A stretch of 64,000 bases of DNA from a virus. The position numbers and the translations under genes are program-made. Positions 4,768 to 61,691 of this stretch are shown piece after piece (position 1 is the stretch's first letter; each line of letters begins with the position of its first letter). The notes beneath the pieces are model-generated. The model was not told the DNA's origin and did not search any database. It saw only the letters and a program-made list of their open reading frames with translations. Location: IMG/VR virus record IMGVR_UViG_3300009008_000010, positions 1-64,000 of that record; one strand, written 5' to 3'.

Positions 4768-4791
4768 TCATACCATTAATTTCATAAACCG

Positions 4792-4826
4792 CCTCCCCGC
4801 ACGCGGGCGGGCGGGGAGGTTTTTTT
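4792..4826 (+). terminator. Intrinsic terminator
   Basis: CCTCCCCGC/GCGGGGAGG stem plus T7. Confidence 0.85.
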
Positions 4827-8179: not shown

Positions 8180-8602
8180 ATGACTCAACCGCAACTTAAC
8201 CCTCCTGATGACGGCCCTACGACTTTCAATAAAGTTGTGGATTCTGGTGAACGACAAGAGTTTGGAACCGGAGCGGTTCGAGATACTCAAGATGGAAAGG
8301 GGAGATTCGATTTGCTTCCTTATTACGCAGTAACAAGACTGGCACAGCACTTTGAGAATGGCGCTCAAAAATATGGTGCTGAGAACTGGCGACAAGGCAT
8401 TCCTCTTAGGCGATATTTGGATTCTATGCTAAGGCACGCATTTAAGTTTTTGGCTGGTTCCGAGGACGAAGACCACCTAGCGGCTGTCATTTGGAATGCG
8501 TGTTGTTTGCTGGAAACTCAGGAATTAGTTAAGCAGGGCTTGCTACCTGAAGAATTAAATGATTTGCCCAAACCTGTAATAGTGGAGAAAACAAATGAGT
8601 GA
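8180..8602 (+). CDS. dATP/dGTP diphosphohydrolase-domain protein (DUF5664-like)
   Basis: GAVRD..KGRFDLLP, GAQKYG.ENW..G, SMLRH, EDHLAAVIWNA motifs. Confidence 0.8.
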   Translation: MTQPQLNPPDDGPTTFNKVVDSGERQEFGTGAVRDTQDGKGRFDLLPYYAVTRLAQHFENGAQKYGAENWRQGIPLRRYLDSMLRHAFKFLAGSEDEDHLAAVIWNACCLLETQELVKQGLLPEELNDLPKPVIVEKTNE

Positions 8603-9071
8603 AGATCCTCTAATGAAGAAAATGTTGGATGTTTCTATGAATCAAAGGATGGAGATGCTAAATAAACAAAAAGCCAAGGTGGAGCGATCCATGAGAGAGA
8701 CGCCGAAGTATTTTGTTCATCCTAATAAAAGAACATTCGTCCCTAAAGGTTGGGGCTATGAAGATTGGATTGCTAATTCTGAATTATATTGTGGCAAAGA
8801 ACTGTTTGTCAAAAAAGGCAAAAAGTGCAGTTGGCACTATCACGAAAAAAAGGATGAAACATTCTATGTGATGACAGGCAAGATGCTTCTATATTTCTCT
8901 GAAGATGACGATTTAGAGAAGTCTTGTGAAGTAGTTCTAACTCCAGGCGATGCTTTCCATGTGCCTGTAGGTTTAAGGCACCAGTTTGTTGGATTGCAAG
9001 ATACACGTTTTTTTGAAATTTCTACACAGCATTTTGATGAAGATTCCATAAGGGTAATCAAAGGCGATTAG
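8595..9071 (+). CDS. Cupin-fold sugar isomerase-like protein
   Basis: KGWGYE, CSWHYHEKKDETFY, GDAFHVPVGLRH cupin metal-binding motifs. Confidence 0.8.
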   Translation: MSEDPLMKKMLDVSMNQRMEMLNKQKAKVERSMRETPKYFVHPNKRTFVPKGWGYEDWIANSELYCGKELFVKKGKKCSWHYHEKKDETFYVMTGKMLLYFSEDDDLEKSCEVVLTPGDAFHVPVGLRHQFVGLQDTRFFEISTQHFDEDSIRVIKGD

Positions 9072-11082: not shown

Positions 11083-11769
11083 CTACCCTCTGATTAATCG
11101 TTTGACCTTTTTTTCTAATTTATTGATGCCGACCTCGGTTATAACTACAAATTTCCAACCTCTGATGTGACAATAATCTTCGGCGGCATGGAATTTAGCC
11201 TCGTTTTTTGGACTGCTAGTTTGGCTGGCTGGCTTCACTTCCCAGACTTCTGTATGGCCATCTGCCATAGCTATTTTTAAATCTGGTAAGTAAATGTGTC
11301 TTTCCCCATCGAGGTAGTATGGGATTTCTTCGGTTTCTGTGTCATAAAGCAATATGTCTGGCAAGACTTCAAGGCACTCGTATACTTTTCTTTCATAGCC
11401 AGATCGGTATCTTACTTCTTTCCCTTTCATCATGGGCTTATTGGATACTAAAATACCCTGCATGAATTTGGGTTTTCTGGTGACAATTTTCTTTTTGCCT
11501 TTAGCTACTTTTTGATCTCGCCACACGGTAGCCTTGAATTGAATCCCTCCAGGTATTTTTTCATTTCTGTGCTTGGTTTTAAAATGTGCTCTCAAATCAC
11601 GCACGGGTGCTCCACATCTTTTTAGTGGGCAAAGCACGTAATCTCTGCTTTCTTCGTGTTTTTCTACTATGTGTTCTTTGTATGCTTTGTAGTCATTGAA
11701 TTCTTGCCCACACACGAAACACTGCCATCTTCTTTTATATTTATCAGGCAGATCGAAGGGTAGTGTCAT
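11083..11769 (-). CDS. TnsA-like/T4 gp4-like head-completion endonuclease with N-terminal C2H2 zinc fingers
   Basis: YRSGYE, YLPD, EVKP, KFHAA...GWKFVVITE PD-(D/E)xK pattern; CxxC-x12-HxxxxH fingers. Confidence 0.75.
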   Translation of the reverse strand: MTLPFDLPDKYKRRWQCFVCGQEFNDYKAYKEHIVEKHEESRDYVLCPLKRCGAPVRDLRAHFKTKHRNEKIPGGIQFKATVWRDQKVAKGKKKIVTRKPKFMQGILVSNKPMMKGKEVRYRSGYERKVYECLEVLPDILLYDTETEEIPYYLDGERHIYLPDLKIAMADGHTEVWEVKPASQTSSPKNEAKFHAAEDYCHIRGWKFVVITEVGINKLEKKVKRLIRG

Positions 11770-12233: not shown

Positions 12234-12668
12234 ATGATTAAAACATTTCGTCAATGGCTTGAAGGTCAAGCACCACCAAATCCCGATGGTATCACGGGAG
12301 GCACCGAGAGTCAGGTGGGTGCTGGCCCTGCTGCTTGGAAAGGCCAAGCATTTCCTTTTACTGGAGAATTAAAAGGAAAGCAGTATAATCAAGTATGGTT
12401 TACCATAGCTGATATGGATGATGATGAAGATCCACAGACGATTACGCTAGATATATTTAGCGATAGCCCCAGTTTGACTCAACGGGTGTCTTTCGTAAAC
12501 CAAAAACAAGATGGCGATAAATTTGCAGCCGAACCAGACCAGGGACAAATTACAGTCACCAGAGCAGAATTGGATGAAATAATAGGAGGACCGTGGCGAA
12601 CAGCAATGGCCCCTCCAAATCCAATGGGCGGTGGCGGATTACCTGGAGGAGCACCAGGAGGATTATAA
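12234..12668 (+). CDS. Hypothetical protein, putative internal head protein
   Basis: N-terminus MIKTFRQWLE resembles the T4 capsid-targeting sequence. Confidence 0.65.
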   Translation: MIKTFRQWLEGQAPPNPDGITGGTESQVGAGPAAWKGQAFPFTGELKGKQYNQVWFTIADMDDDEDPQTITLDIFSDSPSLTQRVSFVNQKQDGDKFAAEPDQGQITVTRAELDEIIGGPWRTAMAPPNPMGGGGLPGGAPGGL

Positions 12669-12669
12669 A

Positions 12670-13002
12670 ATGAAATTTTGTGACATGAACGATTTAATTA
12701 CTGAATCTAAAAAAACAAAAAAAGAAAAAAAAGAGGCCCCAAAAGAGTTTCCATTTTTTAAAAAAGAGGCTCCAGAAGACAAGTCGCCTGATAAGGACGG
12801 TAAGGAAGAACCTAAAGACGACAAAAAAGAGGCGGTGGCTTATCCCACATTTACTGAGTGGATGAAGTTAAAAGAAACAACGACATCTACTGCTTGTGTT
12901 GCTGGCTTTGCTCGTCCTGTCGGAATTGGCACTCCAGGCCCAGATGATGACAAAAAGAAAAAAAATGAAAAAGGGAGTGTGATAAGAAGGAATTTCCCTT
13001 GA
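12670..13002 (+). CDS. Charged low-complexity hypothetical protein
   Basis: AGGAGG SD before ATG 12670; internal TFTEWMKLKE motif. Confidence 0.65.
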   Translation: MKFCDMNDLITESKKTKKEKKEAPKEFPFFKKEAPEDKSPDKDGKEEPKDDKKEAVAYPTFTEWMKLKETTTSTACVAGFARPVGIGTPGPDDDKKKKNEKGSVIRRNFP

Positions 13003-13027
13003 CAATTTATCCCTAGAAGACTACTAT
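12999..13027 (+). promoter_or_regulatory. Sigma70-type promoter
   Basis: TTGACA-17 bp-TACTAT. Confidence 0.75.
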
Positions 13028-13032
13028 ATTTA

Positions 13033-13208
13033 ATAAGGTGCTACAACACCTGTGGCTGCAATTAGCCAAACAAAGTTCGCGTCTAATTTAAATTTGCTAC
13101 GATTTTCATATGACGATGATTTTTGGATAATAATAACGGCTTTTGAGATGGGAAATTGCGAACACTAATAATTGCAGGCCCACCTTCGATAGGAAGGTGG
13201 GCTTTTTT
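13033..13208 (+). ncRNA. Putative ~175-nt structured ncRNA (6S-like candidate)
   Basis: Bounded by the promoter and a terminator; no meaningful ORF; long-range pairings CTGCAATTA/TAATTGCAG and GTTCGC/GCGAAC. Confidence 0.55.
13178..13208 (+). terminator. Intrinsic terminator
   Basis: GCCCACCTTC-GATAG-GAAGGTGGGC-T6, a perfect 10-bp stem. Confidence 0.9.
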
Positions 13209-13242
13209 TGTGTCTATACTAGATTAGAACAAGGAGATTGAA

Positions 13243-13671
13243 ATGCAAATAGAGCTAAGGACGGAAAAACAAGAGTATATTGATGAGGATTTCAAAGATC
13301 ATTTGAAGGAATGCAAAGATTGTTTCCCTGAGTGTGAGACTAGGTTCGGTCCTGGTAGTTATGGGTTTTTTGAACTTTTAGATCGCTCAATGCAGGCTTA
13401 TGAGTATTTTGAACATTATGTATTAGGAAGCTGCGCTACATCAGTAGATAAAGAGATTTATGAGAAAGCTCATAAAATAGCTCAGGCGTTGTATGACTTT
13501 TATCAATTTGTTGCCTTGAAGGATTTCGATGCAGAAGATAAAGAAAAACACCGTCAAGTAGGCGAGTTTTTCGATTGGGCAACTAAAAAAATCAAAACGG
13601 ATGGCAAACCAGTGGATTTGGAGGCTTTAATGAAAGAATGGGAGAAGGAGCACAACGTAGGACAATTTTAA
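13243..13671 (+). CDS. Hypothetical protein
   Basis: AAGGAG SD; 142 aa. Confidence 0.75.
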   Translation: MQIELRTEKQEYIDEDFKDHLKECKDCFPECETRFGPGSYGFFELLDRSMQAYEYFEHYVLGSCATSVDKEIYEKAHKIAQALYDFYQFVALKDFDAEDKEKHRQVGEFFDWATKKIKTDGKPVDLEALMKEWEKEHNVGQF

Positions 13672-13672
13672 T

Positions 13673-14005
13673 ATGATAGAAATTGGTGGATACGGGTATG
13701 AATTTGAAACCGAGCATTATGGTGGCCCGTTTGATGGTTCAAAAGATACAGTGGTATCATTTAATGAACTTCCGCCCCGTTATCAGGTTTTGCCTGTAGG
13801 CGAAACAATAAATGATAATAAGAAGTTGGGGCAGAAATTAATGGAGGCGTGGAGACAAAAACACTTGCCTGATGATACATGGGTAGCCGTTTATAAAATA
13901 GAAGGCAGACCAGAAGAATATGATAATGAACAGGTGGTTCCTTATCACTATGTCAAAACCATGTGTCATAAGGAATATAAGGAAGAATACAGGGAGGAAG
14001 AGTGA
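13673..14005 (+). CDS. Hypothetical protein
   Basis: Tightly coupled to the previous ORF; GGPFDG motif. Confidence 0.7.
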   Translation: MIEIGGYGYEFETEHYGGPFDGSKDTVVSFNELPPRYQVLPVGETINDNKKLGQKLMEAWRQKHLPDDTWVAVYKIEGRPEEYDNEQVVPYHYVKTMCHKEYKEEYREEE

Positions 14006-14172
14006 TCCCACTAGAGAGCGGACAGCCTCCAAACAACATTGCGATTGCAACTGGATGTTGTGATGATGATGATTATATCAAGCAATTAGGCGATGATATA
14101 GCCAAATTAGATACGAACCAATCCAAGGAATTATATGATTACCTCAGATTACATATTGGAACCCTACGATGA
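14002..14172 (+). CDS. 56-aa mini-protein resembling the ribosomal bL12 (L7/L12) N-terminal domain
   Basis: GTG start overlapping the previous stop (GTGA), GGGAGG SD; sequence IKQLGDDIAKLDTNQSKELYDYL. Confidence 0.55.
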   Translation: MIPLESGQPPNNIAIATGCCDDDDYIKQLGDDIAKLDTNQSKELYDYLRLHIGTLR

Positions 14173-15043
14173 TGCCCTTACTCAAATATTGAGGAAGGGC
14201 GATCTTAAAAAAAATAGGACGGGAGTGGATACCATTTCTATTTTCTGTATGCAGTCTCGTTATAGAATAGATGAATACTTTCCCTTGCTTACTCGTCGTT
14301 CTATAAGACCTCAATCTCTTTTCGCTGAACTATTGTGGTTTATCAGTGGAAACACCAACAACAATAAACTCAAAGAGCTAGGTTGTAATTTCTGGACTCC
14401 TTGGGTAGATGAAGAGTTTGAGGAAAAACATAAATTTGTTCCTGGGTCATTTGGCCCGCTCTATGGTTTCCAGTTGAGACATTTTAATGGGATTTATCAT
14501 AATGGGGATCAAAATTGTTTTAGGAGAGACCATTATGGGTCTGAGCCAGACAATTACTGTTATGGTGAGGGTGGTTTTGACCAACTGGCTTATGTTTTAG
14601 AACAATTAAAAACCAACCCTGATTCTCGTCGCATATTGTGGAATTTGTGGAATCCTAAACAGTTAGATAAAATGCGGTTGCCTCCCTGTCATTATGGGTT
14701 TCAGTTTTATACTTACGAAAATAAATTAAGCGGCGTCCTAACACAACGCAGTTGTGATTTCCCAGTTGGCGTTCCTTTCAATATCGCTTTTTACAGTGCT
14801 TTAATCTATATGGTGGCTCAACAAACAGGTTTTGAGCCTTATGAGTTTATCCATTGGACAGCCGATAGTCACATCTATGTAGATCAAATTCCGGCAGTGG
14901 AAGATTATCTCGCACGAGATAAACCGGGTTCACCTAAATTAAATCTGAGAAAAGCAGAAGATATTGACTCATACAAAGTTGAAGATTTTCAACTAGAGAT
15001 GTATAATCCCCTTTCGCATATTAAAATTCCGGTAGCTGTATGA
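14135..15043 (+). CDS. thyA: Thymidylate synthase
   Basis: NRTGVDT, ELLWFISG, PDSRR, LPPCH catalytic Cys, QRSCD, PFN, HIY. Confidence 0.95.
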   Translation: MITSDYILEPYDDALTQILRKGDLKKNRTGVDTISIFCMQSRYRIDEYFPLLTRRSIRPQSLFAELLWFISGNTNNNKLKELGCNFWTPWVDEEFEEKHKFVPGSFGPLYGFQLRHFNGIYHNGDQNCFRRDHYGSEPDNYCYGEGGFDQLAYVLEQLKTNPDSRRILWNLWNPKQLDKMRLPPCHYGFQFYTYENKLSGVLTQRSCDFPVGVPFNIAFYSALIYMVAQQTGFEPYEFIHWTADSHIYVDQIPAVEDYLARDKPGSPKLNLRKAEDIDSYKVEDFQLEMYNPLSHIKIPVAV

Positions 15044-15366
15044 GTTTTTATCTTTTTTGGGTTCCTGCTGTATTAATCATGTATGCTGTAACTGCTGTCT
15101 TTTCTAAGTGGGCAAATGACAGCACTGGTTGGACGTGGGTGTTTGGCTTGTATGTTCTTCAGTGTGCAGGTCTTTGGCCATTGGTTTCCAAGTATTCTAA
15201 GAACATTGTTTTTGATGGCCTTTTATATGAAGTGATTATGTTTGTAGGTTTTTATGGTGTTTTGTGTATAATGGGTGCAACAAAGAACTTTACATTTTAT
15301 CAGTATTGTGGTATGATTCTCGTAATTACTGGGATGATTTTAGTTAAAGTCACAGGAACACACTAA
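15040..15366 (+). CDS. Small 4-TM membrane protein (SMR/EamA-like)
   Basis: Four hydrophobic helices ending GMILVITGMILV. Confidence 0.6.
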   Translation: MSFYLFWVPAVLIMYAVTAVFSKWANDSTGWTWVFGLYVLQCAGLWPLVSKYSKNIVFDGLLYEVIMFVGFYGVLCIMGATKNFTFYQYCGMILVITGMILVKVTGTH

Positions 15367-15863
15367 TGATCACTATAATTGCAGCCGTAGATGATAACGG
15401 AATCATAGGCCAGAATGGGGACATTCCTTGGCGCATTCCAGAAGAACTGGAACATTTCAAAAAGACCACGTTGGGTCACGTAGTAATTATGGGGCGAAAG
15501 ACGTGGGACAGTTTACCAGATGGATTTAAACCTTTACCAGAAAGGTTTAATTTGATAGTATCTGGTAGCGATCATGTTGACACTGGCACTGAGAACACGG
15601 TGTTTTTTGATAGCTTAGAGTCGGCTATTCAATTTGCTGAATCTAATTGTCAGAGTTCTTTTGTGATAGGTGGAGCCAGCATTTATCGTCAAGTGCTAGA
15701 CAAAGGCTTGGCTGATCGCATATTAATGAGTAAGGTAAAAGGGGAACATGAGGGGGATGTGTATTTCCCCTTAATGACCGGCTGTTGGCAAGGAAACTTA
15801 ACAGAAGAGCATGATCAGTTTGATGTCTGGGAATACAATAAAATACACGAAGACGACGATTAA
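15366..15863 (+). CDS. folA: Dihydrofolate reductase
   Basis: IGQNGDIPW, MGRKTWDSL, PLPER, VIGGASIY, GDVYFP. Confidence 0.95.
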   Translation: MITIIAAVDDNGIIGQNGDIPWRIPEELEHFKKTTLGHVVIMGRKTWDSLPDGFKPLPERFNLIVSGSDHVDTGTENTVFFDSLESAIQFAESNCQSSFVIGGASIYRQVLDKGLADRILMSKVKGEHEGDVYFPLMTGCWQGNLTEEHDQFDVWEYNKIHEDDD

Positions 15864-16293
15864 TTTAATGATCGCTTCGTTGATTGAGAATATAAAATCA
15901 TCGGGAAAGCAGTATAGCTGTGTAGTAGGCATCAGGGAAGGTGGGATAAACGTGAGTGTTCCGGTCGCGCGTGCGTTATGCCTGCCGCATCATTCGGTCC
16001 ATATTAGTTTTTATGATCGTCAGAATGCGGTAGGAGGGTTGGTGTCTAGCGATGGTTTTATTTGGCAGCAAAACTGTCTTGTTGTGGATGATTTGATTGA
16101 TGGGGGCAAGACGATTGAGTGTTTTAAATCTAATTTTGGTGAAGCAGACGTAGCGGTTTTATTCTGGCATGAGACGTGTCATGTGATTCCAGAATACTAC
16201 GTTCATGTTAAGCCGCCATCCTGGGTGGTTTTCCCTTGGGAGATAGAAGAATGTCCGAATGGCAATTTGAAGGTTTCGAGCGTCCCAAATTAA
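15811..16293 (+). CDS. Purine phosphoribosyltransferase-like protein
   Basis: GIREGG, LVVDDLIDGGKT PRPP-binding loop, WVVFPWE as in Gpt. Confidence 0.85.
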   Translation: MISLMSGNTIKYTKTTINLMIASLIENIKSSGKQYSCVVGIREGGINVSVPVARALCLPHHSVHISFYDRQNAVGGLVSSDGFIWQQNCLVVDDLIDGGKTIECFKSNFGEADVAVLFWHETCHVIPEYYVHVKPPSWVVFPWEIEECPNGNLKVSSVPN

Positions 16294-16623
16294 ATCTTGA
16301 GGACATTGATAAAGTTCTCCACATGATTCGGGCACGCATTAGTCATCATTTTGAAAAGTATGGTGATGGTGTCTTTAGGTAATGATCGAACCAATATACT
16401 TGAGGTCAATGCCGGTAAGGGTATATCTACCATATTTGATTGTGGTTGTTCGTCCGCAGGATTCCCAGTGCCCATACCAGAAGAACCGTATAGATTTCAA
16501 TTAAAAGGCATTGCTGCTTTTCCATTATTCGTGGATAGTCTTCTTTCTGATGATGCCTTGGTGATTATGTTAAAAGACGGGTTAGCCCATAATTTGGTGA
16601 TTAGAAATGCAAATTATAAATGA
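16251..16623 (+). CDS. Hypothetical protein split over two frames (43-aa ORF 16251-16382 plus +1-frame ORF to 16623)
   Basis: GGAG SD before ATG 16251; stop at TTT-AGG-TAA while the +1 frame stays open to 16623. Confidence 0.45.
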
Positions 16624-17857
16624 TGTTAAATTAGACTTTAGTGACGTTTTGATACGTCCTAAGAGATCAAAAACAGTAAGTCGTTCTAGGGTTGATTTAA
16701 CCCGTGAATATCAGTTTCTCAATTGCGATAATCCTTCTGAAGAGCTTCCAACTTGGGAAGGTGTCCCAATTGTTGCAGCAAATATGGATTCGGTAGGAAC
16801 ATTTAGAATGGCTGAGTCATTATCCAAGCATGGGATGATGACTTGTCTTCATAAACACTACAGTATCGAACAACTAATTGCATTTTATTCTAGGTCGGAT
16901 CAGGTTTGTAGTAAATTGATGCATTCAGAGCCGCCAGGAGGGCCAGATTATGAGATTGGCCCTGAAGGTGTGCCGGAAGAAGACATAGAATTTGCGAAAG
17001 AATGTTATCGCGCCTATGTTGCCGATCATACTTTCTACACAATGGGGATTAAAGAAGATGATTTAATGAAGCTGAAAAAAGTGATAGGCATACAAAACTC
17101 AGAGCTTTTTCAGATTCCAGGTGCAAAAACAAAAATTAGGCACGTCTGCATGGATGTTGCAAATGGGTATCAAGACTACTTTGTAGACTGTGTGAGAAGA
17201 CTCAGAGATGAGGTGGGTGAAGATGTGGTAATTATGGCTGGTAATGTAGCTACACCTGAAATGGTTCAGGAGCTTCTAATTACTGGGGCAGCAGACATTG
17301 TAAAGGTTGGGATTGGTCCTGGTTCTGTTTGCACTACTAGAACCACTACAGGCGTGGGTTTTCCTCAGTTAAGTGCAGTTATTGAATGTGCAGACGCCGC
17401 ACACGGTTGCGATGGTCATATCTGTGCAGATGGAGGCTGCGTAACCCCTGGTGATGTGTGTAAAGCGTTCGGGGCCGGGGCAGATTTTGTAATGTTGGGC
17501 GGGATGCTGAGTGGAACGGACGAGTGTGATGGTGAATGGACTTATTGGGAAGATTACGGTTCATGTAGTGGAACCACTGAATCTGGTGAGAGAAAAAAGA
17601 AAGCCTTTGTGTTTTATGGTATGAGTTCTAAAGAAGCTCAATTGAAACATGACGGAGAATTTAAGAGATACAGAGCGGCGGAAGGGAAAAAGACATTTAT
17701 TCCTTATAAAGGCCCTGTAGATCGTGTTATACAAGAAGTTTTAGGGGGGTTAAGGTCGGCTTGTGCTTATGTGGGCACGGATGATCTTAAAAATTTATCT
17801 AAATGCACTACTTTTGTAAGAGTCAATAGAACTCACAACCGAACTTACGGAGAATAA
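16607..17857 (+). CDS. guaC: GMP reductase
   Basis: LDFSDVLIRPKRS, AANMD, DVANGY, KVGIGPGSVCTTR, ADGG, FYGMSS, AEGK. Confidence 0.93.
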   Translation: MQIINDVKLDFSDVLIRPKRSKTVSRSRVDLTREYQFLNCDNPSEELPTWEGVPIVAANMDSVGTFRMAESLSKHGMMTCLHKHYSIEQLIAFYSRSDQVCSKLMHSEPPGGPDYEIGPEGVPEEDIEFAKECYRAYVADHTFYTMGIKEDDLMKLKKVIGIQNSELFQIPGAKTKIRHVCMDVANGYQDYFVDCVRRLRDEVGEDVVIMAGNVATPEMVQELLITGAADIVKVGIGPGSVCTTRTTTGVGFPQLSAVIECADAAHGCDGHICADGGCVTPGDVCKAFGAGADFVMLGGMLSGTDECDGEWTYWEDYGSCSGTTESGERKKKAFVFYGMSSKEAQLKHDGEFKRYRAAEGKKTFIPYKGPVDRVIQEVLGGLRSACAYVGTDDLKNLSKCTTFVRVNRTHNRTYGE

Positions 17858-20248: not shown

Positions 20249-20274
20249 CCCATCCCCTGCGGTCCACCACAACC

Positions 20275-20309
20275 GGCCCCCGTGCTTGCACGCACGGGGG
20301 CCTTTTTTT
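20275..20309 (+). terminator. Intrinsic terminator
   Basis: GGCCCCCGTGC/GCACGGGGGCC 11-bp stem plus T7. Confidence 0.9.
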
Positions 20310-21320: not shown

Positions 21321-22634
21321 ATGACACTGATAACAGACTTTATAGGCAAGAACTATGCGACCCGCCCCAAAATCCTTGTAATGGGGGATTGCATGATTGA
21401 TGAGTATTACGAGGTAGAAGTTAATAGAATATCACCGGAGGCACCCATTCCAGTGATGAAGTCTTCTACTGATGAGCCAGTATGTATCGCTCCAGGTGGG
21501 GCAGCTAATGTGGCGAGTCAATTTGCATACTGGAATACGGAATGCGATTTGTTGAGTCCAGAGTGTCGCATCCCTATTAAAAAGAGGTTTAAAAATGGAC
21601 AGAATTTAATTAGATGGGACGTAGAAGATCCGTCTGAAGTGACTGATAAGCACATTGAGGAAACCATTGCAACTTTGAAGGTGTGGTTATCAAAAAAGAA
21701 ATATGATGTTGCTATATTGAGCGATTATGATAAGGGTCTTTTTAGAAACTTCAAACTTGTTCAAGAAATGATTACTCTTTTTAGCACCTATGGAGTCAAA
21801 ACTATTGTCGATCCTAAAGATGATCCTATTGAGAAGTGGTTGGGTTGCACTGTGTTTAAGCCCAATTCTGTTGAAGCAAATAAATTTACAGGGCACTATG
21901 ACGGTGGTTGTCAAAGTGCCAAATTAGCTGAGAGCTTGTTGGATTCGTCTATCGTAATAACTAAAGGGGGTGAAGGTACCTATTGTTACGACGCTTCAGC
22001 AAGACACGATTTCCACTATCAGCCAAAGAAGAGGGCAAGGGTAAAGAGTGTAATAGGGGCGGGAGATTGTTTTGTTTCTTTGCTCGCCTTAGCGATAGCT
22101 CATAAGTATCCGCTTGAACAAGCGGTAGAGATAGCTTATGAGGCGGGGGCTATTTATGTGCAGAGAGAACACAATAAGCCCGTTAGCCCACTGGACTTAC
22201 AAGATAGTAAGTTTGTATGGCCAGTTTCTTTGGCTGATAGGGATTTTAAATTAGTCGTCAGTAATGGATGTTTTGATTTGCTTCATTCTGGTCATATAGC
22301 TTCTTTGGAGTTTGCTAAATCTAAAGGGGATAAGTTAGCCGTTCTTGTTAATTCAGATATGAGTGTAAGGAAATTAAAGGGGCGCGGAAGACCGATTTTA
22401 CCACTATCAGATAGAATGGACATGTTGGCTGCATTAGAGTGTGTTGATTATGTAGTTCCTTTTGAGGAAGAGAGTCCTATGGAATGTATTAAGAAAATAC
22501 AGCCAGATGTTCTTGTTAAGGGGCCGACAAGCAAAAAACCAAGGTCTGCTGAGTTTGTCAAAGAGTTTTATAATGCTCCTTCTGTAGATTGGGTATCTAC
22601 AAGTAACATTATTGACAGAATTAAAAACGCTTGA
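21321..22634 (+). CDS. hldE: Bifunctional heptose-7-phosphate kinase / heptose-1-phosphate adenylyltransferase
   Basis: RISPEAPIPV, GGAANVA, SDYDKG, KPN, GAGD PfkB domain plus NGCFDLLHSGH, NSD.SV..LKG.GRP, PDVLVKG, STSNII. Confidence 0.92.
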   Translation: MTLITDFIGKNYATRPKILVMGDCMIDEYYEVEVNRISPEAPIPVMKSSTDEPVCIAPGGAANVASQFAYWNTECDLLSPECRIPIKKRFKNGQNLIRWDVEDPSEVTDKHIEETIATLKVWLSKKKYDVAILSDYDKGLFRNFKLVQEMITLFSTYGVKTIVDPKDDPIEKWLGCTVFKPNSVEANKFTGHYDGGCQSAKLAESLLDSSIVITKGGEGTYCYDASARHDFHYQPKKRARVKSVIGAGDCFVSLLALAIAHKYPLEQAVEIAYEAGAIYVQREHNKPVSPLDLQDSKFVWPVSLADRDFKLVVSNGCFDLLHSGHIASLEFAKSKGDKLAVLVNSDMSVRKLKGRGRPILPLSDRMDMLAALECVDYVVPFEEESPMECIKKIQPDVLVKGPTSKKPRSAEFVKEFYNAPSVDWVSTSNIIDRIKNA

Positions 22635-22671
22635 TATAATTCAGCGATATAAATTTTACAAGGAACAGTTG

Positions 22672-23658
22672 ATGTCACTTCCTATCCCACTATACGCTCT
22701 GGTAACAGAAGAACAATTACGATCTACTAGGAGCGGCGAAAGATACTTTTTTCAATACACTGTCAAAACTATTGCGGGCAATTTGAAGGCGATGATGTGG
22801 AATGCACATCAAGGTGCCGATATGGACGAGGCTTTCCCGCACGCCAATGACATAGTAGAGTTGACCAACTTTATCGATCAGCTTTCTACCCACAAAAGCA
22901 TTGTAATTAACAGCAATGGATTCAGGCGATTAACCAAAGAACAATTGCCTGAAGACCAAAAATCCATTTGTGAATTCCCCAAGGCGAAGCCAGAGGATCT
23001 AAAATGGGCTTTTTCAGTGCTTGCTGATAAAGAAATGTGGGATGAAGTTGAGCATTATGAGTTCGCTGCTGCATGTTTGGCTAAGTTGGACACAAATAAA
23101 TTGAAGGCGTGTCCTGCTGCTACTGCTGTTCACCACAACTATCAGGGCGGATTGCTTGTTCACACGGCTGAGGTTTTAAGTTTGTGTAAATCTTACATGG
23201 ATGCCGCTGGTGAAAGGTATCCTTTTGTTAGTCGTGATGTATTGTATGCTAGTGCTATCTTGCATGATATTGGCAAGGTAGAAACGTATTCTATCAGTGA
23301 AATGGGGGCCGCAGAGAGAAGCGTCACTGAGAATCAAATAGGTCATATTTATTACGGTATGCACCTTGCACAAATTGTAGGCGAAGAAAGAAAAGTTGAT
23401 CCTGAATTTTTAAATGAAGTGATGCACTGTATTGCTGCTCATCATGGCACCGTAGATTGGGGCAGTGTTAAACCTGTGTTGTCCCATGAAGCTGGTATTT
23501 TGAGTCGCCTCGATTATCTTAGTAGCAGAAATGGCATGATTGAATCCAAGCTAGAAGAGAACGTAAGAGGCAATCTACCACTAAAAGATTTTGTTATTTA
23601 TGGCGATCCGTATTTCGCATCCATTGCCATGAAAAAATACGTCGAAGATAGGATTTAA
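22672..23658 (+). CDS. YhaM/Cbf1-like OB-fold plus HD-domain 3'-5' exonuclease
   Basis: PAATAVHHNYQGGLLVHT, LHDIGK, GHI, HCIAAHHG. Confidence 0.85.
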   Translation: MSLPIPLYALVTEEQLRSTRSGERYFFQYTVKTIAGNLKAMMWNAHQGADMDEAFPHANDIVELTNFIDQLSTHKSIVINSNGFRRLTKEQLPEDQKSICEFPKAKPEDLKWAFSVLADKEMWDEVEHYEFAAACLAKLDTNKLKACPAATAVHHNYQGGLLVHTAEVLSLCKSYMDAAGERYPFVSRDVLYASAILHDIGKVETYSISEMGAAERSVTENQIGHIYYGMHLAQIVGEERKVDPEFLNEVMHCIAAHHGTVDWGSVKPVLSHEAGILSRLDYLSSRNGMIESKLEENVRGNLPLKDFVIYGDPYFASIAMKKYVEDRI

Positions 23659-27312: not shown

Positions 27313-29373
27313 ATGACGAAACTAGCAGAACTCACTTCTCAATTTGATCGTCAACGTTTTCTTTCGTTGAATGAAGAGATTTCTTTTGACGAATATTTAG
27401 AGAAGTGTTGGGAGAGACCCAAAACCGTAAGGTCAGCGTACCAAAGAATATATGACATGATAATGTGCGCTGGCACTTCATCTTACAAAAGATACAGGAA
27501 GTCTTATACCTGTTATCACTTTTTCGATGACACAGAAGTGCCTGTGTTTTCTTTAGATGATACCAAGGATCAGTTTGTTAAATTCATTAGAGGGGCCGCA
27601 GGTGGCTTCGGTAGTGAAAAGAGACTACTCCTTCTACATGGCCCAGTAGGCTCAGCTAAGTCTACACTGTGCCGTCTTTTAAAGCGTGGGCTAGAAAGGT
27701 TTTCAAGGACCGACGATGGTGCTTGGTATACCTTCAAGTGGGTTAATTTACCAGAGGAATTGTTTGTTAAGGAACACGATATTTCCCCAATGAATGATGA
27801 GCCTCTGAAGCTGCTCACCCCTGATATAGCCCTGCCTTTCTTGCAAGACCTAAACAAAAGGCTTGTAGAAACTGTTGAAGACACCCGCTTGCATTATGAT
27901 CTTAAATTGGTTGGTTCTTTAAATCCAAGGTGCAAGTTTTACTTAGATGAACTTTTGAGGCTCCATGATGGAGATTTGAACAAAGTTCTTTCAGAACATG
28001 TTAGGGTAATTCGTAGGGTTCACTCTGAAGCAGATCGCACAGGTATCGGAACATTTGCTCCGAAAGACGAGAAAAACCAAGATTCCACTGAATTAAATGG
28101 TGACATTGCTTGGGATAAGATCAGCAAGTATGGTTCGGATTCCGATCCGAGGGCATTTAATTTTGATGGTGAATTCTGTGTGGGTTCTCGTGGTGTTGTA
28201 GAGTGGATTGAGGTCTTAAAACTGCAAAAAGAATTCCTATATGACTTGTTGAGTGCTACCCAAGAACAGTGTATCAAACCTAAAAAGTTCCCTCAGATTG
28301 GCATTGACACCGTTTTAATTGGTCACACCAATAATCCTGAATATAAAAAGCTCCAAGAAGATATTTACATGGAAGCATTCAGGGACAGAACAGTTAAGGT
28401 GGATGTTCCCTATCTGTTGGAAATATCACAAGAGAAGAAGATTTATGACCATGATTATGGCGAAGAGAAGGTTCAACAACATATCGCTCCGCACACTTTG
28501 GAAATGGCTGCTCTTTGGGGAGTTATAACCAGATTGAAGGAATGTGAGGCATGTGATGATCCTATCAAGTTGGCCAAATTATATGATGGTCAAGCACTGC
28601 CCGGTTGGACAGAAGACCGAGTTCGAGAAATTAAAGAGACTAGGGTAGATGAGGGCATGGGTGTGGGCATCAGTGCCCGTTACATCCAAGATGCTCTCTC
28701 TTGTTGCCTTAGCGATCACCACACCTATATCAACCCATTTATGTTGATTAACGAACTGGAACGTCGTCTAAGACACAGTTCGGTCTTTGCAGCAGATAAA
28801 GATTTGCTCAAACACCTGTTAGATTGCATTGATTCTGTTAAAAAGGAATTAGATGAAATTCTTAAAAATGAAGTCAAGAATGCTTTAATTTCTGATGAAA
28901 AAGCCGTTGTTAGACTTTGCACTAATTACATTGATAACTTAATGGCTTATATTGAAGGTTCTAAAGTTACGAATGAGTTCACAGGACGGGAAGAAGAGCC
29001 TAATGAAGCGTTAATGCGGAGTATTGAAGAAAAAATCAGAATCCCCGATACAGGGGCACATGATTTTCGTGTTATGATTCAAGGCTACATTGGCAAGTGT
29101 CACCACTTAAAAGAAGAGTTTACGTGGAAGTCCAATGATGATTTGAAAAGGGCTTTGGAAGCCAAACTGTATGAAGATACCAAGGATCACATTAAGTTGA
29201 GTGCTTTAAATGTCAAAGGTGCTTCAACTGTAGACCCTGACTTGCAAGAAAAGATCGATGTTATTAAGAAGAGGATGATTGAAAAATTTGGATACATCGA
29301 AGAATCTGCCACTGATGTTTTGAATTATGTTGGTAGTATTTTCGCTAGAGGCGAGTTAGCCAAGGAGGAGTAA
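27313..29373 (+). CDS. prkA: PrkA/YeaG family AAA+ ATPase / serine kinase
   Basis: LHGPVGSAKST, PKDEKNQDSTEL, DPRAFNFDGE, HTN.PEY, EAFRDR, IAPHTLE, GISAR, FGY. Confidence 0.92.
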   Translation: MTKLAELTSQFDRQRFLSLNEEISFDEYLEKCWERPKTVRSAYQRIYDMIMCAGTSSYKRYRKSYTCYHFFDDTEVPVFSLDDTKDQFVKFIRGAAGGFGSEKRLLLLHGPVGSAKSTLCRLLKRGLERFSRTDDGAWYTFKWVNLPEELFVKEHDISPMNDEPLKLLTPDIALPFLQDLNKRLVETVEDTRLHYDLKLVGSLNPRCKFYLDELLRLHDGDLNKVLSEHVRVIRRVHSEADRTGIGTFAPKDEKNQDSTELNGDIAWDKISKYGSDSDPRAFNFDGEFCVGSRGVVEWIEVLKLQKEFLYDLLSATQEQCIKPKKFPQIGIDTVLIGHTNNPEYKKLQEDIYMEAFRDRTVKVDVPYLLEISQEKKIYDHDYGEEKVQQHIAPHTLEMAALWGVITRLKECEACDDPIKLAKLYDGQALPGWTEDRVREIKETRVDEGMGVGISARYIQDALSCCLSDHHTYINPFMLINELERRLRHSSVFAADKDLLKHLLDCIDSVKKELDEILKNEVKNALISDEKAVVRLCTNYIDNLMAYIEGSKVTNEFTGREEEPNEALMRSIEEKIRIPDTGAHDFRVMIQGYIGKCHHLKEEFTWKSNDDLKRALEAKLYEDTKDHIKLSALNVKGASTVDPDLQEKIDVIKKRMIEKFGYIEESATDVLNYVGSIFARGELAKEE

Positions 29374-29377
29374 GGAA

Positions 29378-29647
29378 GTGGAAGTGAGCGACAATCAAAT
29401 GTTGTTTGATTGGGCTTATACTCAATATACCTGTGAGCCTATTGTGCTTTCGTTGGTCACATTAGGCAAAACAGTGTATGAAGTAAATATAAGCCCCACT
29501 ATTGCGCGTAAAGTGTTGGAATGGTATTTCAATAATTACGTTGACGAAATCAAGGATGAGGATTGGAGTGATAGTCTCCTTTGTCAAGCACTAGAGGAGT
29601 TCACACAAGAACACACCGATACAGGTCTAACAAAGGTAAATAAATGA
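29378..29647 (+). CDS. Hypothetical protein inserted in the prkA operon
   Basis: AGGAG SD; coupled to both neighbours. Confidence 0.6.
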   Translation: MEVSDNQMLFDWAYTQYTCEPIVLSLVTLGKTVYEVNISPTIARKVLEWYFNNYVDEIKDEDWSDSLLCQALEEFTQEHTDTGLTKVNK

Positions 29648-30855
29648 CACGTCGTATTGATGCAGATCATAAATATTTCCGAAAGGTAATAGAAAGAAAA
29701 GTTCGCAAGTCGTTAGACAGATATATCGACAAGGGCAGCATTTTTCGCAACAAGCCAAAAGGCGGCAAAATAGTTATTCCTATTGATCAAATTCACCAGC
29801 CTAAATTGGTTTATGGTGATAATAAAATAGGCGTAGGCCGTGGTCCTGGTAATAAAGGGGATGTGATTAGGCGTGATCCTCAACAGGGCAAAGGTGGAAA
29901 TCAAGCAGGCGAAGAACATGCGGACGGTGTGGAGGTCGTTGTCGATTTGGATGCTGTCTTGCGAGCTATTGGGGAAGATTTAGAACTTCCCAACTTGAAG
30001 CCCAAGGAAAGCAATCTTGAAGAAATAGAATATAAATATTGCAGCATTTCTAAAACAGGCCCTAATTCTCTTAGGCACACTAGAAAAACTCTCATGCAGG
30101 CACTCAAACGCAGGATTATGAGTGGTGAAGATGATGTTTTATATCAACTGCCTGGATTCCGCGAGTCGGTGCAATTAATTAGTCCCATTAGTGAAGATTT
30201 TAGATATAGACAGTATAAGGAGTTTCGGAAACCTGTTAGCAATGCTGTCATATTTTTTGCTAGGGATTGTTCGGGGTCTATGGGTGATGCCAAATGTGAG
30301 ATTGTGTCTGATATATCTTGGTGGCTTGATTTGTGGATACGCAGGTTTTATAAAAGAACAGAGAGAATCTATACAATCCACGATACTGAGGCTGAAATCT
30401 GTGACGAGGATAAATTCTATAGATACCGTCATGGAGGCGGGACAAGGTGTTCATCATCCTTGAAATTAATAAATCAAGAAATCAAAAATAGGTTCCCGCC
30501 CCACAAGTGGAATATTTATTTGTTTTACTTCAGTGATGGGGATAACATAGACCATGATAATGCAGAGTTCTGTCGTGTTTTAAAAGAAGACCTGACGCCC
30601 CAAATTGTTAATTTAACTGGTATTACTCAGGTCTTGTGTTGGAATTACAAATTTAGTCTTAAAAAGTCAATAGACACAGAATTAAGTTCTGGAGGTTTAA
30701 GGCCAGAGTTTGTTAGGACTGTCAGTGTGGGTTCTGAAGAAGAGAAGAAAGGCTATTCAATCTCAGGTGGCACTTTAACGGATGAACAGCGAGACCAATA
30801 CACAAAAAGAGTTTTAAAATCCCTACTAGGCAAGCTAGAAAAAGCAGGTAAATAA
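29644..30855 (+). CDS. yeaH: YeaH/YhbH (DUF444) vWA-domain protein
   Basis: LELPNLKPK, DFRYR, DCSGSM MIDAS motif, GGTRCSS, WNIYLFYFSDGDN. Confidence 0.9.
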   Translation: MTRRIDADHKYFRKVIERKVRKSLDRYIDKGSIFRNKPKGGKIVIPIDQIHQPKLVYGDNKIGVGRGPGNKGDVIRRDPQQGKGGNQAGEEHADGVEVVVDLDAVLRAIGEDLELPNLKPKESNLEEIEYKYCSISKTGPNSLRHTRKTLMQALKRRIMSGEDDVLYQLPGFRESVQLISPISEDFRYRQYKEFRKPVSNAVIFFARDCSGSMGDAKCEIVSDISWWLDLWIRRFYKRTERIYTIHDTEAEICDEDKFYRYRHGGGTRCSSSLKLINQEIKNRFPPHKWNIYLFYFSDGDNIDHDNAEFCRVLKEDLTPQIVNLTGITQVLCWNYKFSLKKSIDTELSSGGLRPEFVRTVSVGSEEEKKGYSISGGTLTDEQRDQYTKRVLKSLLGKLEKAGK

Positions 30856-32432
30856 TGGTTTCTAAAGTTTTTGCGGGATCGCCAACATTAGAAGGCGACA
30901 ATACGGTTCCTGGCGCATCAATGCCAGAAGAGCTTAAGGCTGTAATCCCTCAAATTTTTCAAGCTGTAAGGGATTACGGTTGTGATTTTTACCCCACCAT
31001 CATCGAGATGTTGAGAGATGATGAAATCAGTGAGATTGTGGCTTATAACGGATTCCCTGTTCGTTACCATCACTGGTCGTTTGGGGCAACTTATGAAGAA
31101 ATGCAGATAAGCTATGAGCTTGCCATCAGGCGTGTCAGTGAGCTTGTCATTAACACAGACCCTTGTTTTATTTATTGTTTGAGCAGCAACACCCTTATAG
31201 ACAACATAACCTGTGTATCGCACGCTCTGGGCCATAACGACTTTTTTAAAAATAACATACACTTCCAACACACCGACCGTAACGCCATGAATCGGTTGGC
31301 TAATAATGGCAGTCGTATTAATGAGTATATGGATAGGTGGGGGCGAGAGCGAGTAACGGCTTTTATAGATTGTGTTATGAGGCTGAACACCCTTGTCGAT
31401 CCTGTTAAAGGGTATAAAAGAGTTAGGCAAAAGCCTTTACAGAAAATCAAGGATGAAAGAAAGTATTACGAACCCAGAAGGCTGAAGGTTGATGAAGACC
31501 ATATGGAAAAGTGGATAAACCCGGAAGGTTGGGTTGAACATGAACATGAAATAATTAGAGATAAAGAGGCGGCAGATAACATAGATTTATTTGAGGAGCC
31601 TACTCGTGATGTTTTAGGATTTTTGAGGGATAATGCCCCATTGAAGAATTGGCAGGCAGATATTTTGTCTATGCTCTATGATGAGGCTCTTTATTTTTAC
31701 CCTCAAAGGAAGACTAAGATGGCTAACGAGGGTTGGGCTTCAAAGATTGATTATGAATTGATGGCAAAGCAAGGTCTTGTTGATTTAGGCCCAGGGGGCA
31801 TAGTTGAATATGCCAAGGATAAAATGGGTGTTCTGGGAGGAAAATACTCCATGAACCCCTACAAGCTAGGTTTTTGTTTATTTAATGATATTGAGGATAG
31901 GTGGAACAAGGGGAAATTCGGTCCAGAGTGGGCGAAGTGCCCCATACCAGATAAAAAAGATTGGGATAAAAAGCTAGGCTTAGGCAAAGATAAGATTTTT
32001 GAAGTTCGCCAGTTTTATGATGATTACATGATGATCAATGATTTCTTCACCGAGGACTTTTGTAACGAAAATGAATTTTTCGAGTGGGAGAAGAACGCTA
32101 AGGGCGAATACGTGATAGCTAGTAGGGATCATAGTGTAATTAAAAACAAGTTGCTGAGACATTATCTGAATCGTGGTCTCCCTGACATAAGGCTTGCCGA
32201 CCCTAATTTCAGGGGCAGGGGGCAGTTTTTATTGGAGCATGTTTGGGAAGGTCGAGAATTGTATCATCCTTATATGAAAGCAGTGCTTACATCTGTTAGG
32301 ACACTGTGGAATGATGCTGTGTTTTTGGCTACTAGAGATGCTGATGGCGAGGAAATAGTTTGCATGTGTGATTCGGATAATGAAGATGATGTAGAAATTA
32401 TTAGTAGAGAAAAGTTTGAAAAGGATTGGTAG
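30855..32432 (+). CDS. spoVR: SpoVR/YcgB family protein
   Basis: GFPVRYHHWSFG, ELVINTDPC, HALGHNDFFKNN, YFYPQRKTKMANEGWAS, NPYKLG. Confidence 0.92.
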   Translation: MVSKVFAGSPTLEGDNTVPGASMPEELKAVIPQIFQAVRDYGCDFYPTIIEMLRDDEISEIVAYNGFPVRYHHWSFGATYEEMQISYELAIRRVSELVINTDPCFIYCLSSNTLIDNITCVSHALGHNDFFKNNIHFQHTDRNAMNRLANNGSRINEYMDRWGRERVTAFIDCVMRLNTLVDPVKGYKRVRQKPLQKIKDERKYYEPRRLKVDEDHMEKWINPEGWVEHEHEIIRDKEAADNIDLFEEPTRDVLGFLRDNAPLKNWQADILSMLYDEALYFYPQRKTKMANEGWASKIDYELMAKQGLVDLGPGGIVEYAKDKMGVLGGKYSMNPYKLGFCLFNDIEDRWNKGKFGPEWAKCPIPDKKDWDKKLGLGKDKIFEVRQFYDDYMMINDFFTEDFCNENEFFEWEKNAKGEYVIASRDHSVIKNKLLRHYLNRGLPDIRLADPNFRGRGQFLLEHVWEGRELYHPYMKAVLTSVRTLWNDAVFLATRDADGEEIVCMCDSDNEDDVEIISREKFEKDW

Positions 32433-32485: not shown

Positions 32486-33205
32486 ATGGTACGCAACCAA
32501 AGTCAAGCTGCCGCTAAAAAGAGAAAAGAACAGCTTGAGCAAATCTTGTCAGATTTGCACAATTTAAACTGTAATCTATACACTCGTGAAGTATACATGC
32601 ATGGTTATTACAATGACTATGACGAGCCGGGTGTAGAATACCGCATGGCAACTACTTTCGAGAAGAACATAAGACTCCTCGATCAACAAGACCAAACTAA
32701 TATTTTGGTTCACATGCACACTTTTGGCGGTGAGTGGAATGATGGCATGGCTATGTATGACATCATTAGATTCGTAAAGTCTCCGGTCACAATTATCGGG
32801 TATTCTTGGGCAAGGTCTATGTCCAGTATAATTCCACAAGCAGCAGATTTAAGAATCCTTTTACCAGATTGTGATTTTATGGTGCATTATGGGTGGTATG
32901 GTGAGGAGAATCAATGGACTGCTGCAATGTCATCTATGGAATATGCTAAAAGATCAGAGGAAAGGATGTTGCGTGTTTATGCGAAAAGATGTATAAATGG
33001 AGAATACTTTCAAAATCGTTATAAGTCTCTCACCGAAGAGAAGGTGATGGAGTTTTTAGATAAAAAGATGAGAGAGAGAGGGGACTGGTGGATTGGCTCA
33101 GAAGAAGCCGTCTATTATGGTTTTGCAGACGGAGTTCTGGGTCAGCCAGGATTTGAAACGTTCGAGAAAACCAGAATTAAGAAAAAGGTGAAACTAGAGC
33201 TATGA
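32486..33205 (+). CDS. clpP: ClpP-like serine protease
   Basis: TFGGEWNDGMAMYD, ARSMSS (catalytic Ser), FMVH (His), ERGD (Asp), EEAVYYGFAD. Confidence 0.85.
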   Translation: MVRNQSQAAAKKRKEQLEQILSDLHNLNCNLYTREVYMHGYYNDYDEPGVEYRMATTFEKNIRLLDQQDQTNILVHMHTFGGEWNDGMAMYDIIRFVKSPVTIIGYSWARSMSSIIPQAADLRILLPDCDFMVHYGWYGEENQWTAAMSSMEYAKRSEERMLRVYAKRCINGEYFQNRYKSLTEEKVMEFLDKKMRERGDWWIGSEEAVYYGFADGVLGQPGFETFEKTRIKKKVKLEL

Positions 33206-33456
33206 CAGAAGGTGAACTACTACTGACAGACGAATTCCTACAGTTTTCCGGGGACATTGCAGCACTTATCCAAGAAAAGAAAACCCTCAAAGACGATTTT
33301 AAGAAAGTCTATGAGGAGTTTCAAACCAAACTCAAATCGGTAGATCAAAAAGCTGATAAACGATCTAAAGAGTTTGATGAGTGGAAGAAATCTAAAACTA
33401 AAGATCCTGTGCCGCACATGGAAGAACCTCCTAAATCCAAGACGGGTAAAAAGTGA
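33202..33456 (+). CDS. Hypothetical coiled-coil protein
   Basis: Coupled to neighbours by 4-nt overlaps. Confidence 0.65.
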   Translation: MTEGELLLTDEFLQFSGDIAALIQEKKTLKDDFKKVYEEFQTKLKSVDQKADKRSKEFDEWKKSKTKDPVPHMEEPPKSKTGKK

Positions 33457-40946: not shown

Positions 40947-40985
40947 AAAAAACGCCTCCATGCCATTTATATAGTATGGAGGCGT
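40947..40985 (-). promoter_or_regulatory. tmRNA terminator hairpin that sequesters the HNH SD and carries a late-promoter-like motif in its loop
   Basis: Minus strand: ACGCCTCCAT-ACTATATAAATGGC-ATGGAGGCGT-TTTTT-ATG. Confidence 0.7.
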
Positions 40986-40996
40986 CAGTTTTGAAG

Positions 40997-41349
40997 TGGA
41001 GGCGGTGGGCTATGCTCCCACGTCCAGTCTATCTATCCCCAAAGCGTCTACGTGTGTAGTTTATTGCTTGTGTCTCGCTTCATGGTGTTGCAACAAACAA
41101 AAGCGCCAATCAGCCAGCAACATCTTGTCTTACTTAGGTCGTCGTTGCAGGAACCTAAGAGTGGCCAACTTTTGCGACTAGACTTCAGACCCCGTTAGCT
41201 AAGGGTTCTTTGTCCAGGGCTACTGTTACGCAGCCAGTTGAAGTGGTCTTTCGACAACTAAATTATTGATCAAGTTTTTACGTGGCCCCTTGATCAACCA
41301 CGACACGCGACTTTGGCTCAACGATACCTGTCGAACCTAATTCGCCCCC
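40997..41349 (-). ncRNA. ssrA: tmRNA (one-piece)
   Basis: 5' GGGGGCGAATTAGGTTCGAC and 3' GGACGTGGG-AGCATAG-CCCACCGCCTCCA form a tRNA-Ala-like acceptor stem with G3.U70; tag ORF (A)VERPLQLAA-stop at 41255..41226 after UAGUU; 353 nt; CCA not encoded. Confidence 0.92.
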
Positions 41350-44394: not shown

Positions 44395-44422
44395 TTGAAA
44401 AATAGGTTCCATTTGCTATAAT
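44395..44422 (+). promoter_or_regulatory. Sigma70-type promoter of the DnaE C-terminal gene
   Basis: TTGAAA-16 bp-TATAAT with extended -10 TG. Confidence 0.6.
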
Positions 44423-49948: not shown

Positions 49949-49959
49949 GGAGAGAAAGA

Positions 49960-61678: not shown

Positions 61679-61691
61679 AACGAAACGAAAT

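Follow-up and report, generated by a model that had tools for sequence, protein, structure and literature searches.

A conserved promoter-to-terminator RNA unit ahead of a thyA-folA gene string in a giant-phage record

The locus and its setting

The DNA analysed here (the window) is the first 64,000 nucleotides of IMGVR_UViG_3300009008_000010, a virus record of 120,240 bp with a GC content of 42%. CheckV rates the record as 24% complete, which would make the whole phage roughly half a megabase long. Its genes include those for RecA, a split DnaE, a PrkA/DUF444/SpoVR triad, ClpP, ThyA, DHFR and GMP reductase. By DnaE the closest phage in GenBank is LR756511.1 (uncultured, 595 kb), at 48% identity. 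The stretch occurs in seven sequencing runs, none of them listed as RNA, and its sources are marine and sediment metagenomes.

A gap without ORFs, 13003-13242, separates ORF 12631-13002 from ORF 13243-13671, both on the plus strand. The original prediction placed here a stand-alone, structured RNA, a 6S-like candidate, in an otherwise gap-free genome. By a crude ORF call the window has six gaps of more than 120 nt, this 240-nt gap among them, and two of the six are accounted for, one by a tmRNA gene and one by a missed PRTase gene. Conservation at the DNA level was compared with one relative, L002, a 1009-nt metagenome contig. The features, all on the plus strand, are as follows.

12999..13027, plus: predicted sigma70-type promoter, with −35 TTGACA (12999-13004), a 17-nt spacer and −10 TACTAT (13022-13027)
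13036..13051, plus: 5′ hairpin P0, core GGUG/CACC plus an A-U pair, loop CUACAA
13056..13064, plus: 5′ strand of helix P1, CUGCAAUUA, with an alternative partner in a local hairpin (13053-57/13064-68)
13075..13080, plus: 5′ strand of helix P2, GUUCGC, invariant in L002
13081..13157, plus: A/U-rich core, 77 nt, weakly structured and highly conserved
13143..13172, plus: internal promoter-like site, TTGAGA-18-AATAAT, score 10/12 (TTGAAA and AATAAT in L002)
13158..13163, plus: 3′ strand of P2, GCGAAC, complementary to GTTCGC at 13075-80
13169..13177, plus: 3′ strand of P1, UAAUUGCAG, its last 2 nt shared with the lowest terminator stem pairs
13176..13209, plus: intrinsic terminator, hairpin 13176-13204 with a 12-bp stem (7 G-C) and a 5-nt loop, then seven T
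13210..13242, plus: spacer, poorly conserved, with ribosome-binding site AAGGAG (13231-13236)
13243..17857, plus: same-strand gene string beyond the terminator, thyA-folA-PRTase-GMP reductase
from 13243, plus: proteins of unknown function of 142, 110 and 56 aa, ahead of ThyA
14135..15043, plus: ThyA, then a 108-aa protein
15366..15863, plus: DHFR
15811..16293, plus: xanthine-PRTase-like protein, 160 aa, overlapping the end of the DHFR gene and hidden in the crude ORF call
16607..17857, plus: GMP reductase, preceded by a 90-aa ORF

The promoter is present as originally described (TTGACA-17-TACTAT, read directly in the sequence). It scores 10/12, its −35 hexamer overlaps the TGA stop of ORF 12631-13002, and transcription from it would start at about 13034-13036. 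Among the 43 sites of the record that score at least 10/12, 18 fall in the 12.6% of the sequence that is not deep inside an ORF. Given this enrichment outside ORFs, the phage very probably uses the host polymerase at sigma70-type sites. The other intergenic promoter-like sites of the record mostly lie 7-95 nt before the next start codon, while the main promoter lies 216 nt before it. Two perfect 12/12 sigma70 consensus sequences occur elsewhere, one at 8812-8783 (minus strand), antisense within ORF 8595-9071, and one at 22612-22640 (plus strand), at the very start of ORF 22612-23658. There are also promoter-like −10 elements that end only 7-11 nt before predicted starts, at 44395-44422 in the window and at 76696-76723, 99253-99280 and 116879-116906 in the rest of the record; either these mark leaderless mRNAs or the longest-ORF starts were placed too early.

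The terminator had been called perfect, with 10 bp. It is indeed strong, and the program counts 12 pairs rather than 10. It is the best of 17 terminator-like sites between 8 and 20 kb, and over the whole 120-kb record it ranks fourth in strength among 86 candidate hairpins with a T-run (−23.8 kcal/mol). First in that ranking is a terminator-like hairpin at about 20265-20309 on the plus strand (−29.1 kcal/mol), at a point where two minus-strand ORFs meet.

Beyond the terminator, same-strand genes continue without a strong terminator to about 19.1 kb. The first of them, for the 142-aa protein, has no match in Pfam, PHROGs or NCBIfam; its structure model is too poor for a search (pLDDT 60.6), and in the Atlas it falls only in unnamed clusters, all below 0.9. 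A PyrR-like regulator behind folA was considered and rejected, the closest match being a xanthine PRTase (45 bits, with PyrR at only 16 bits). A type III toxin-antitoxin system was rejected as well: there are no tandem repeats in 13003-13242, the only array in 12900-13300 being an A-rich run inside the upstream ORF, and the database searches of the 142-aa protein returned nothing ToxN-like. Nor does GC skew indicate a replication origin at the locus, as it is positive in 60 of 60 two-kb bins with no turning point.

Several other features of the record were observed in passing. Just upstream of the locus, a divergent gene block encodes a protein that combines a C2H2 zinc finger with a TnsA-like endonuclease domain in a fusion (11083-11769, minus strand). 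The PrkA kinase, DUF444 and SpoVR triad lies at 27313-32429 (plus strand), with ClpP just behind it at 32486-33202. DNA polymerase III alpha is seemingly split into two plus-strand parts about 10 kb apart, 33453-34841 (PHP domain and start of the polymerase core) and 44431-47289 (remaining core, fingers and HhH domain). A tmRNA gene at 40994-41349 (minus strand) reaches 113 bits in Rfam (cut-off 47) and was missed by ARAGORN in two runs; a strong terminator follows it on the same strand at about 40947-40952. For huge phages, tmRNA has been reported before (PMC7162821). The largest unexplained gap in the window, 49949-50476, has neither an ORF of 50 codons nor an Rfam match over its 528 nt. A peptide deformylase-like gene (56034-56528) and a translation-initiation-factor-like gene (61653-62210), both on the plus strand, are further phage translation genes. 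Beyond the window, the part of the record from 92161 to 115339 (L043, L044) carries 31 tRNA genes by ARAGORN, all on the plus strand, and 30 by Rfam, which account for most of the large gaps there.

Conservation and folding of the RNA

The protein encoded downstream of the gap has seven homologues, at 57-81% identity, and for only one of them, L002, is DNA at hand; the six others are 57-73% identical. L002 contains the entire unit of promoter, RNA and terminator. Its RNA is 91.9% identical to that of the window (158 of 172 aligned bases, with seven gap columns). The 142-aa ORF is 83.1% identical, with 88.8%, 91.2% and 64.8% at codon positions 1, 2 and 3 (81/125 at the third). By this comparison purifying selection acts on the RNA with about the strength seen at non-synonymous sites, and more strongly than on the neighbouring codons.

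The indels that separate the two RNAs (−2, −1, −1, +2, −2) are not multiples of three, and on this evidence the unit is non-coding. The original prediction saw no meaningful ORF here; a 38-codon frame opening with GTG exists at 13052-13168, and indels break it in L002. A contig from another run (X4) spans the RNA at about 90% identity, with −2 at 13133 and a T-run that is one T longer. In the flanking and upstream ORFs of that contig the indels are −3, −3 and +3, plus −2 at 12667, where ORF 12234-12668 ends.

Conservation differs along the unit. The L002 promoter hexamers, TTGACA and TATTAT, keep 11 of 12 bases; the spacer between them differs at 6 of 17, so that 7 of 29 bases differ over the whole stretch from −35 to −10. 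In P0 the four core pairs are unchanged and the outer A-U pair is lost (T13051C). Within the A/U-rich core, the sole difference over 13093-13132 is a 2-nt insertion. The terminator keeps its 10-bp core stem, while its lowest pair goes from G-U to A-U and three of the five loop bases change. From the T-run to the ATG (33-38 nt) the sequences cannot be aligned except at the ribosome-binding site.

Wider searches added little. The flanking proteins had no match among viral contigs, and GenBank phages matched the locus neither in DNA nor in protein. A search with an eight-sequence alignment gave one locus among 585 pattern matches in metagenome contigs and none among 74 in genome contigs. Five DNA words taken from the RNA gave 0, 0, 34, 1 and 30 loci; scored with a covariance model of the RNA (R1), all of these and one further locus (L038) were at chance level, the best reaching 19.4 bits against 236 for the RNA itself. 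R1 found no match in LR756511.1 (best E 0.88) and no second copy in the 120-kb record, where it matches only the RNA itself; a repeated element was therefore rejected.

The helices of the original prediction are all in the sequence: the 5′ hairpin (AGGTG 13036-40, CACCT 13047-51), long-range helix P1 (CTGCAATTA 13056-64 with TAATTGCAG 13169-77), long-range helix P2, and the alternative local hairpin (TGGCT 13053-57 with AGCCA 13064-68). In dinucleotide shuffles of the body, a perfect helix of at least 9 bp arises in 85 of 2000, and a 9-bp helix enclosing a 6-bp helix in 12 of 2000. The term "structured" is a weak description. The RNA as a whole has a folding z-score of −3.97, a value attributable to the terminator. 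For the body without the terminator z is −1.46 (21 of 200 shuffles fold equally well), and for the L002 body it is +1.00 (169 of 200).

The helix model that we tested is the one of the original prediction, defined on the window alone, plus one added 3-bp inner helix. All 32 of its pairs are standard in both the window and L002. One change in P1 is compensatory (C13056U with G13177A), and a further substitution, A13061G, leaves a G-U pair; G13177A can alternatively be read as an improvement of the lowest terminator pair. Columns that changed relative to L002 number 3 of 64 when paired and 18 of 115 when unpaired (Fisher p 0.03), and the shuffle control gave 242/500, two sequences having no statistical power. 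The minimum-energy folds of the two RNAs disagree. That of the window uses another AATTGC copy, at 13154-60, in a helix that is broken in L002 by T13157A. The two-sequence consensus fold has 42 pairs, shows no compensatory change and is unlike the rod. Forcing P1 carries a penalty of only 2.5 kcal/mol for the RNA of the window and 1.2 for that of L002, and P1 is compatible with the 10-bp terminator core. Of the "long rod" that had been proposed, the P1 and P2 helices hold up in the comparison, with modest support for the rod model, while the folding energies of the two bodies do not suggest a stable rod.

A terminated leader and its alternatives

The reading that we favour, at a probability of about 0.5, is a prematurely terminated leader RNA that gates a thyA-folA-PRTase-guaC operon. 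Host sigma70 RNA polymerase would initiate at about 13034, and the majority of transcripts would end at the terminator (13176-13209) as RNAs about 175 nt long. Those that pass the terminator would serve as message for the 142-aa gene and for the thyA-folA-PRTase-guaC string, and the terminator would act as an attenuator that sets or switches the level of the operon. Transcription from the promoter, its stop at the terminator and read-through as the source of downstream mRNA are what we infer.

Several points speak for the leader. L002, the sole DNA relative found, keeps promoter, RNA and terminator together. The RNA is better conserved than the next gene, its indels are out of step with codons, and the promoter hexamers and terminator core persist where spacer and loop change. 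The main promoter lies unusually far from the next start codon (216 nt), the same-strand genes run on without a strong terminator, and the extended P1 dominates the nascent transcript of L002. The 33 nt that lead from the terminator to the ATG contain no promoter-like site, so that only read-through could feed the operon. The layout also resembles the 5′UTR transcripts that arise by premature termination in Pseudomonas phages, as the available text of PMC10914365 describes them. Against it, no known riboswitch or leader family matches, the conserved unpaired A/U-rich stretches would be just as much in keeping with a seed acting in trans or with a site for protein binding, and promoter-like sites within the downstream ORFs, at 14474, 14979 and 15289, could drive thyA and folA on their own. 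It may also simply be a habit of this phage to have leaky terminators between genes, since a second strong terminator (about 4785-4826) likewise lies about 36 nt ahead of a same-strand gene. The description of the RNA as stand-alone is doubtful, as the next start codon is only 33 nt beyond the T-run with no promoter between. The fallback of the original prediction, a novel sRNA or attenuator, stands, as the unit is non-coding, is conserved above the neighbouring genes and is placed for read-through.

A way in which the leader might switch can be drawn, speculatively, from the competing helices. P1, extended by GUGG (13052-55) pairing with CCAC (13180-83), would cover 8 nt of the 5′ arm of the terminator and so allow read-through. 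The local hairpin at 13053-68 would compete for the 5′ strand of P1, free the arm and allow termination, and the A/U-rich core, with P2 as its closing helix, would then sense an effector. In the modelled nascent transcript of L002 the extended P1 dominates (pair probabilities 0.93 and 0.84), whereas in that of the window its pair probability is 0.02-0.19. In the full-length RNA the proposed antiterminator is 12-13 kcal/mol worse than the terminator state. Because of this penalty and the low pair probability in the window, the switch is not robustly predicted. We regard a switch by P1 extension as no more than possible. It is unlikely that the unit represents a new class of ligand- or factor-sensing switch, in which the core would sense nucleotide or folate status and the P1 extension would open the operon only at times when the infected cell has need of it.

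The chief alternative to the leader is an autonomous gene for a trans-acting sRNA, which would base-pair to mRNAs of the host or the phage, probably helped by a chaperone such as Hfq, while read-through would be incidental. We hold this to be less probable than the leader, and it is the most serious of the rivals. The conserved promoter and the strong terminator with its seven-U tail are as in Hfq-type sRNAs, and a weakly folded body with conserved unpaired A/U-rich stretches is seen in many base-pairing sRNAs. The 194-nt "6S RNA" of lambda is, in the available text of bioRxiv 10.1101/2024.10.31.621285, found on Hfq with host and phage partners. Codons 4-9 of the DHFR gene (15376-90) could pair with 13050-64 in a 15-bp helix that includes two G-U pairs, but among the 724 contiguous helices in the record this one comes only 11th (10th without pairing to the RNA's own reverse strand). 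The best duplex with the translation-start regions of the record reaches −45.7 kcal/mol, a value that shuffled RNAs attain as well (40 shuffles, mean of minima −42.1, sd 2.8), and the longest complementary match in the 120-kb record is 12 nt, the chance expectation. These target scans covered the record, about 24% of the phage. The sRNA reading also leaves the next gene without a promoter of its own behind the terminator.

Quite unlikely, to our mind, is that the internal site at 13143-13172 starts the operon transcripts and that the upstream promoter makes only the short RNA. The predicted start would land in the 5′ arm of the terminator, and transcripts lacking the full hairpin would escape termination. 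Upstream of the 142-aa gene, the main promoter and this weaker site are the sole candidates. The site scores 10/12, both of its hexamers persist in L002, and its distance to the ATG, 71 nt, is typical of the intergenic promoter-like sites of the record. However, a start at 13178-13180 (6-8 nt past the −10) would retain the 10-bp core hairpin and the U-tract, so that escape from termination is not assured. The −10 also lacks its first T, and conservation of the hexamers is unspecific since the whole RNA is conserved.

The 6S-like polymerase decoy of the original prediction, a rod whose central bubble would imitate melted promoter DNA and thereby capture sigma70 RNA polymerase, now seems very improbable. 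6S RNAs have a closing stem formed by their ends and a large central bubble between two stable helical arms. The unit is about as long (some 175 nt), and its nested P1 and P2 (15 bp) would enclose a poorly paired region of 77 nt. No closing stem is seen: every fold puts the 5′ end into a hairpin by itself and ends, on the 3′ side, with the hairpin of the terminator. Past the "bubble" the folds show no stable terminal arm, the folding energy of the body stays within the range of its shuffles in both sequences, and the consensus fold departs from the rod. The Rfam check for 6S RNAs and riboswitches matched no family at the unit. At gathering scores the scan of the window matched only the tmRNA, and a permissive scan of 12900-13300 (401 nt, E up to 10) gave ten matches, none of them 6S. 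The best of these sub-threshold matches were sau-41 (25.2 bits against a cut-off of 80), with the terminator hairpin as its largest matched block, and the PyrR site (17.5 against 54), whose alignment is confident only at the terminator. Known riboswitch and cis-regulatory leader families in Rfam are likewise without a match to the unit.

As improbable is a leader-peptide attenuator or small protein gene using the GTG frame, which lies behind an SD-like AAGGTG (13035-40), is open from the same GTG in L002 too (30 codons) and shares with it the first six codons and a stretch coding YDDDFWII: two 1-nt deletions shift the frame between these shared stretches until a 2-nt insertion restores it, a further 2-nt deletion displaces the stop by about 20 nt so that a ribosome on the L002 RNA would not stop beside the terminator, both substitutions in the shared N-terminal codons are at first or second codon positions, the eight shared codons have no synonymous change against a 35% third-position difference in the neighbouring gene, and the frame has no Pfam match.

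Known systems of similar layout and the meaning of the unit

The closest parallel to the leader is in Pseudomonas phages, including the jumbo phage phiKZ, where ONT-cappable-seq gave ncRNA candidates derived from 5′UTRs by premature termination. The available text of PMC10914365 counts 42 terminators within 5′UTRs, of which 34 give either a short RNA of less than 250 nt or a long read-through transcript. Those cases and the present unit share a promoter, a terminator within 250 nt and the first same-strand gene after it (here a promoter at 12999-13027, a terminator at 13176-13209 and an ATG at 13243, a layout kept in L002). As that text presents them, the Pseudomonas phage ncRNAs rest on mapped transcript ends, whereas the unit is read from the sequence; phages and hosts differ, and no sequence relation is expected. 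Also unlike the cases described there, the unit has a host sigma70-type promoter and is conserved above coding level in one relative.

In lambda, the pR′-"6S RNA"-tR′ unit has a sigma70 promoter and a terminated transcript of about 190 nt that is found on Hfq (bioRxiv 10.1101/2024.10.31.621285, available text). Like the present unit, as far as that text goes, it places a terminated transcript directly before an operon without its own promoter. The same text has read-through in lambda depending on the Q protein and NusA. No Q-like family was found among the window ORFs scanned in Pfam (8 + 55) and PHROGs (55), sets that partly overlap, and this search covered part of the phage, about three quarters of which is unseen. 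The DNA site used by lambda Q lies between the promoter hexamers. In the present unit that spacer is not conserved, and no sequence similarity to the lambda unit is claimed.

Bacterial 6S RNA and the unit are similar in length and in having a poorly paired interior enclosed by helices. They differ in that the unit has no model match, closing stem or stable arms and has a Rho-independent terminator for its 3′ end. In transcriptional ON riboswitches, such as the adenine-sensing pbuE leader, the closing helix of the aptamer shares bases with the 5′ arm of the terminator. The unit has the same order of promoter, sensor-sized RNA, terminator, ribosome-binding site and metabolic operon, and the 3′ strand of the extended P1 likewise would overlap 8 nt of the terminator arm. 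Unlike these riboswitches it matches no family, its body is weakly folded and only one of the two sequences favours the alternative fold. Literature searches on phage 6S RNA, on riboswitches or leaders of phage thymidylate-synthase genes and on jumbo-phage sRNAs, supplementary lists excepted, gave no description of the element. The unit is real, conserved and uncatalogued, and its architecture is already known from phage 5′UTR-derived ncRNAs.

Giant phages carry much machinery for translation and nucleotide metabolism, the timing of whose expression is largely unknown, as almost none of these phages are cultivated. The unit heads a thymidylate and purine-salvage operon with a predicted host-polymerase promoter and one of the strongest terminators of the record, and offers a defined element for experiments in vitro that need neither phage nor host. 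If its termination is conditional, it would be a phage-borne sensor; if the RNA acts in trans, it would add to the few known sRNAs of lytic phages; and if neither, promoter-proximal termination, so far mapped in Pseudomonas phages, would extend to marine giant phages.
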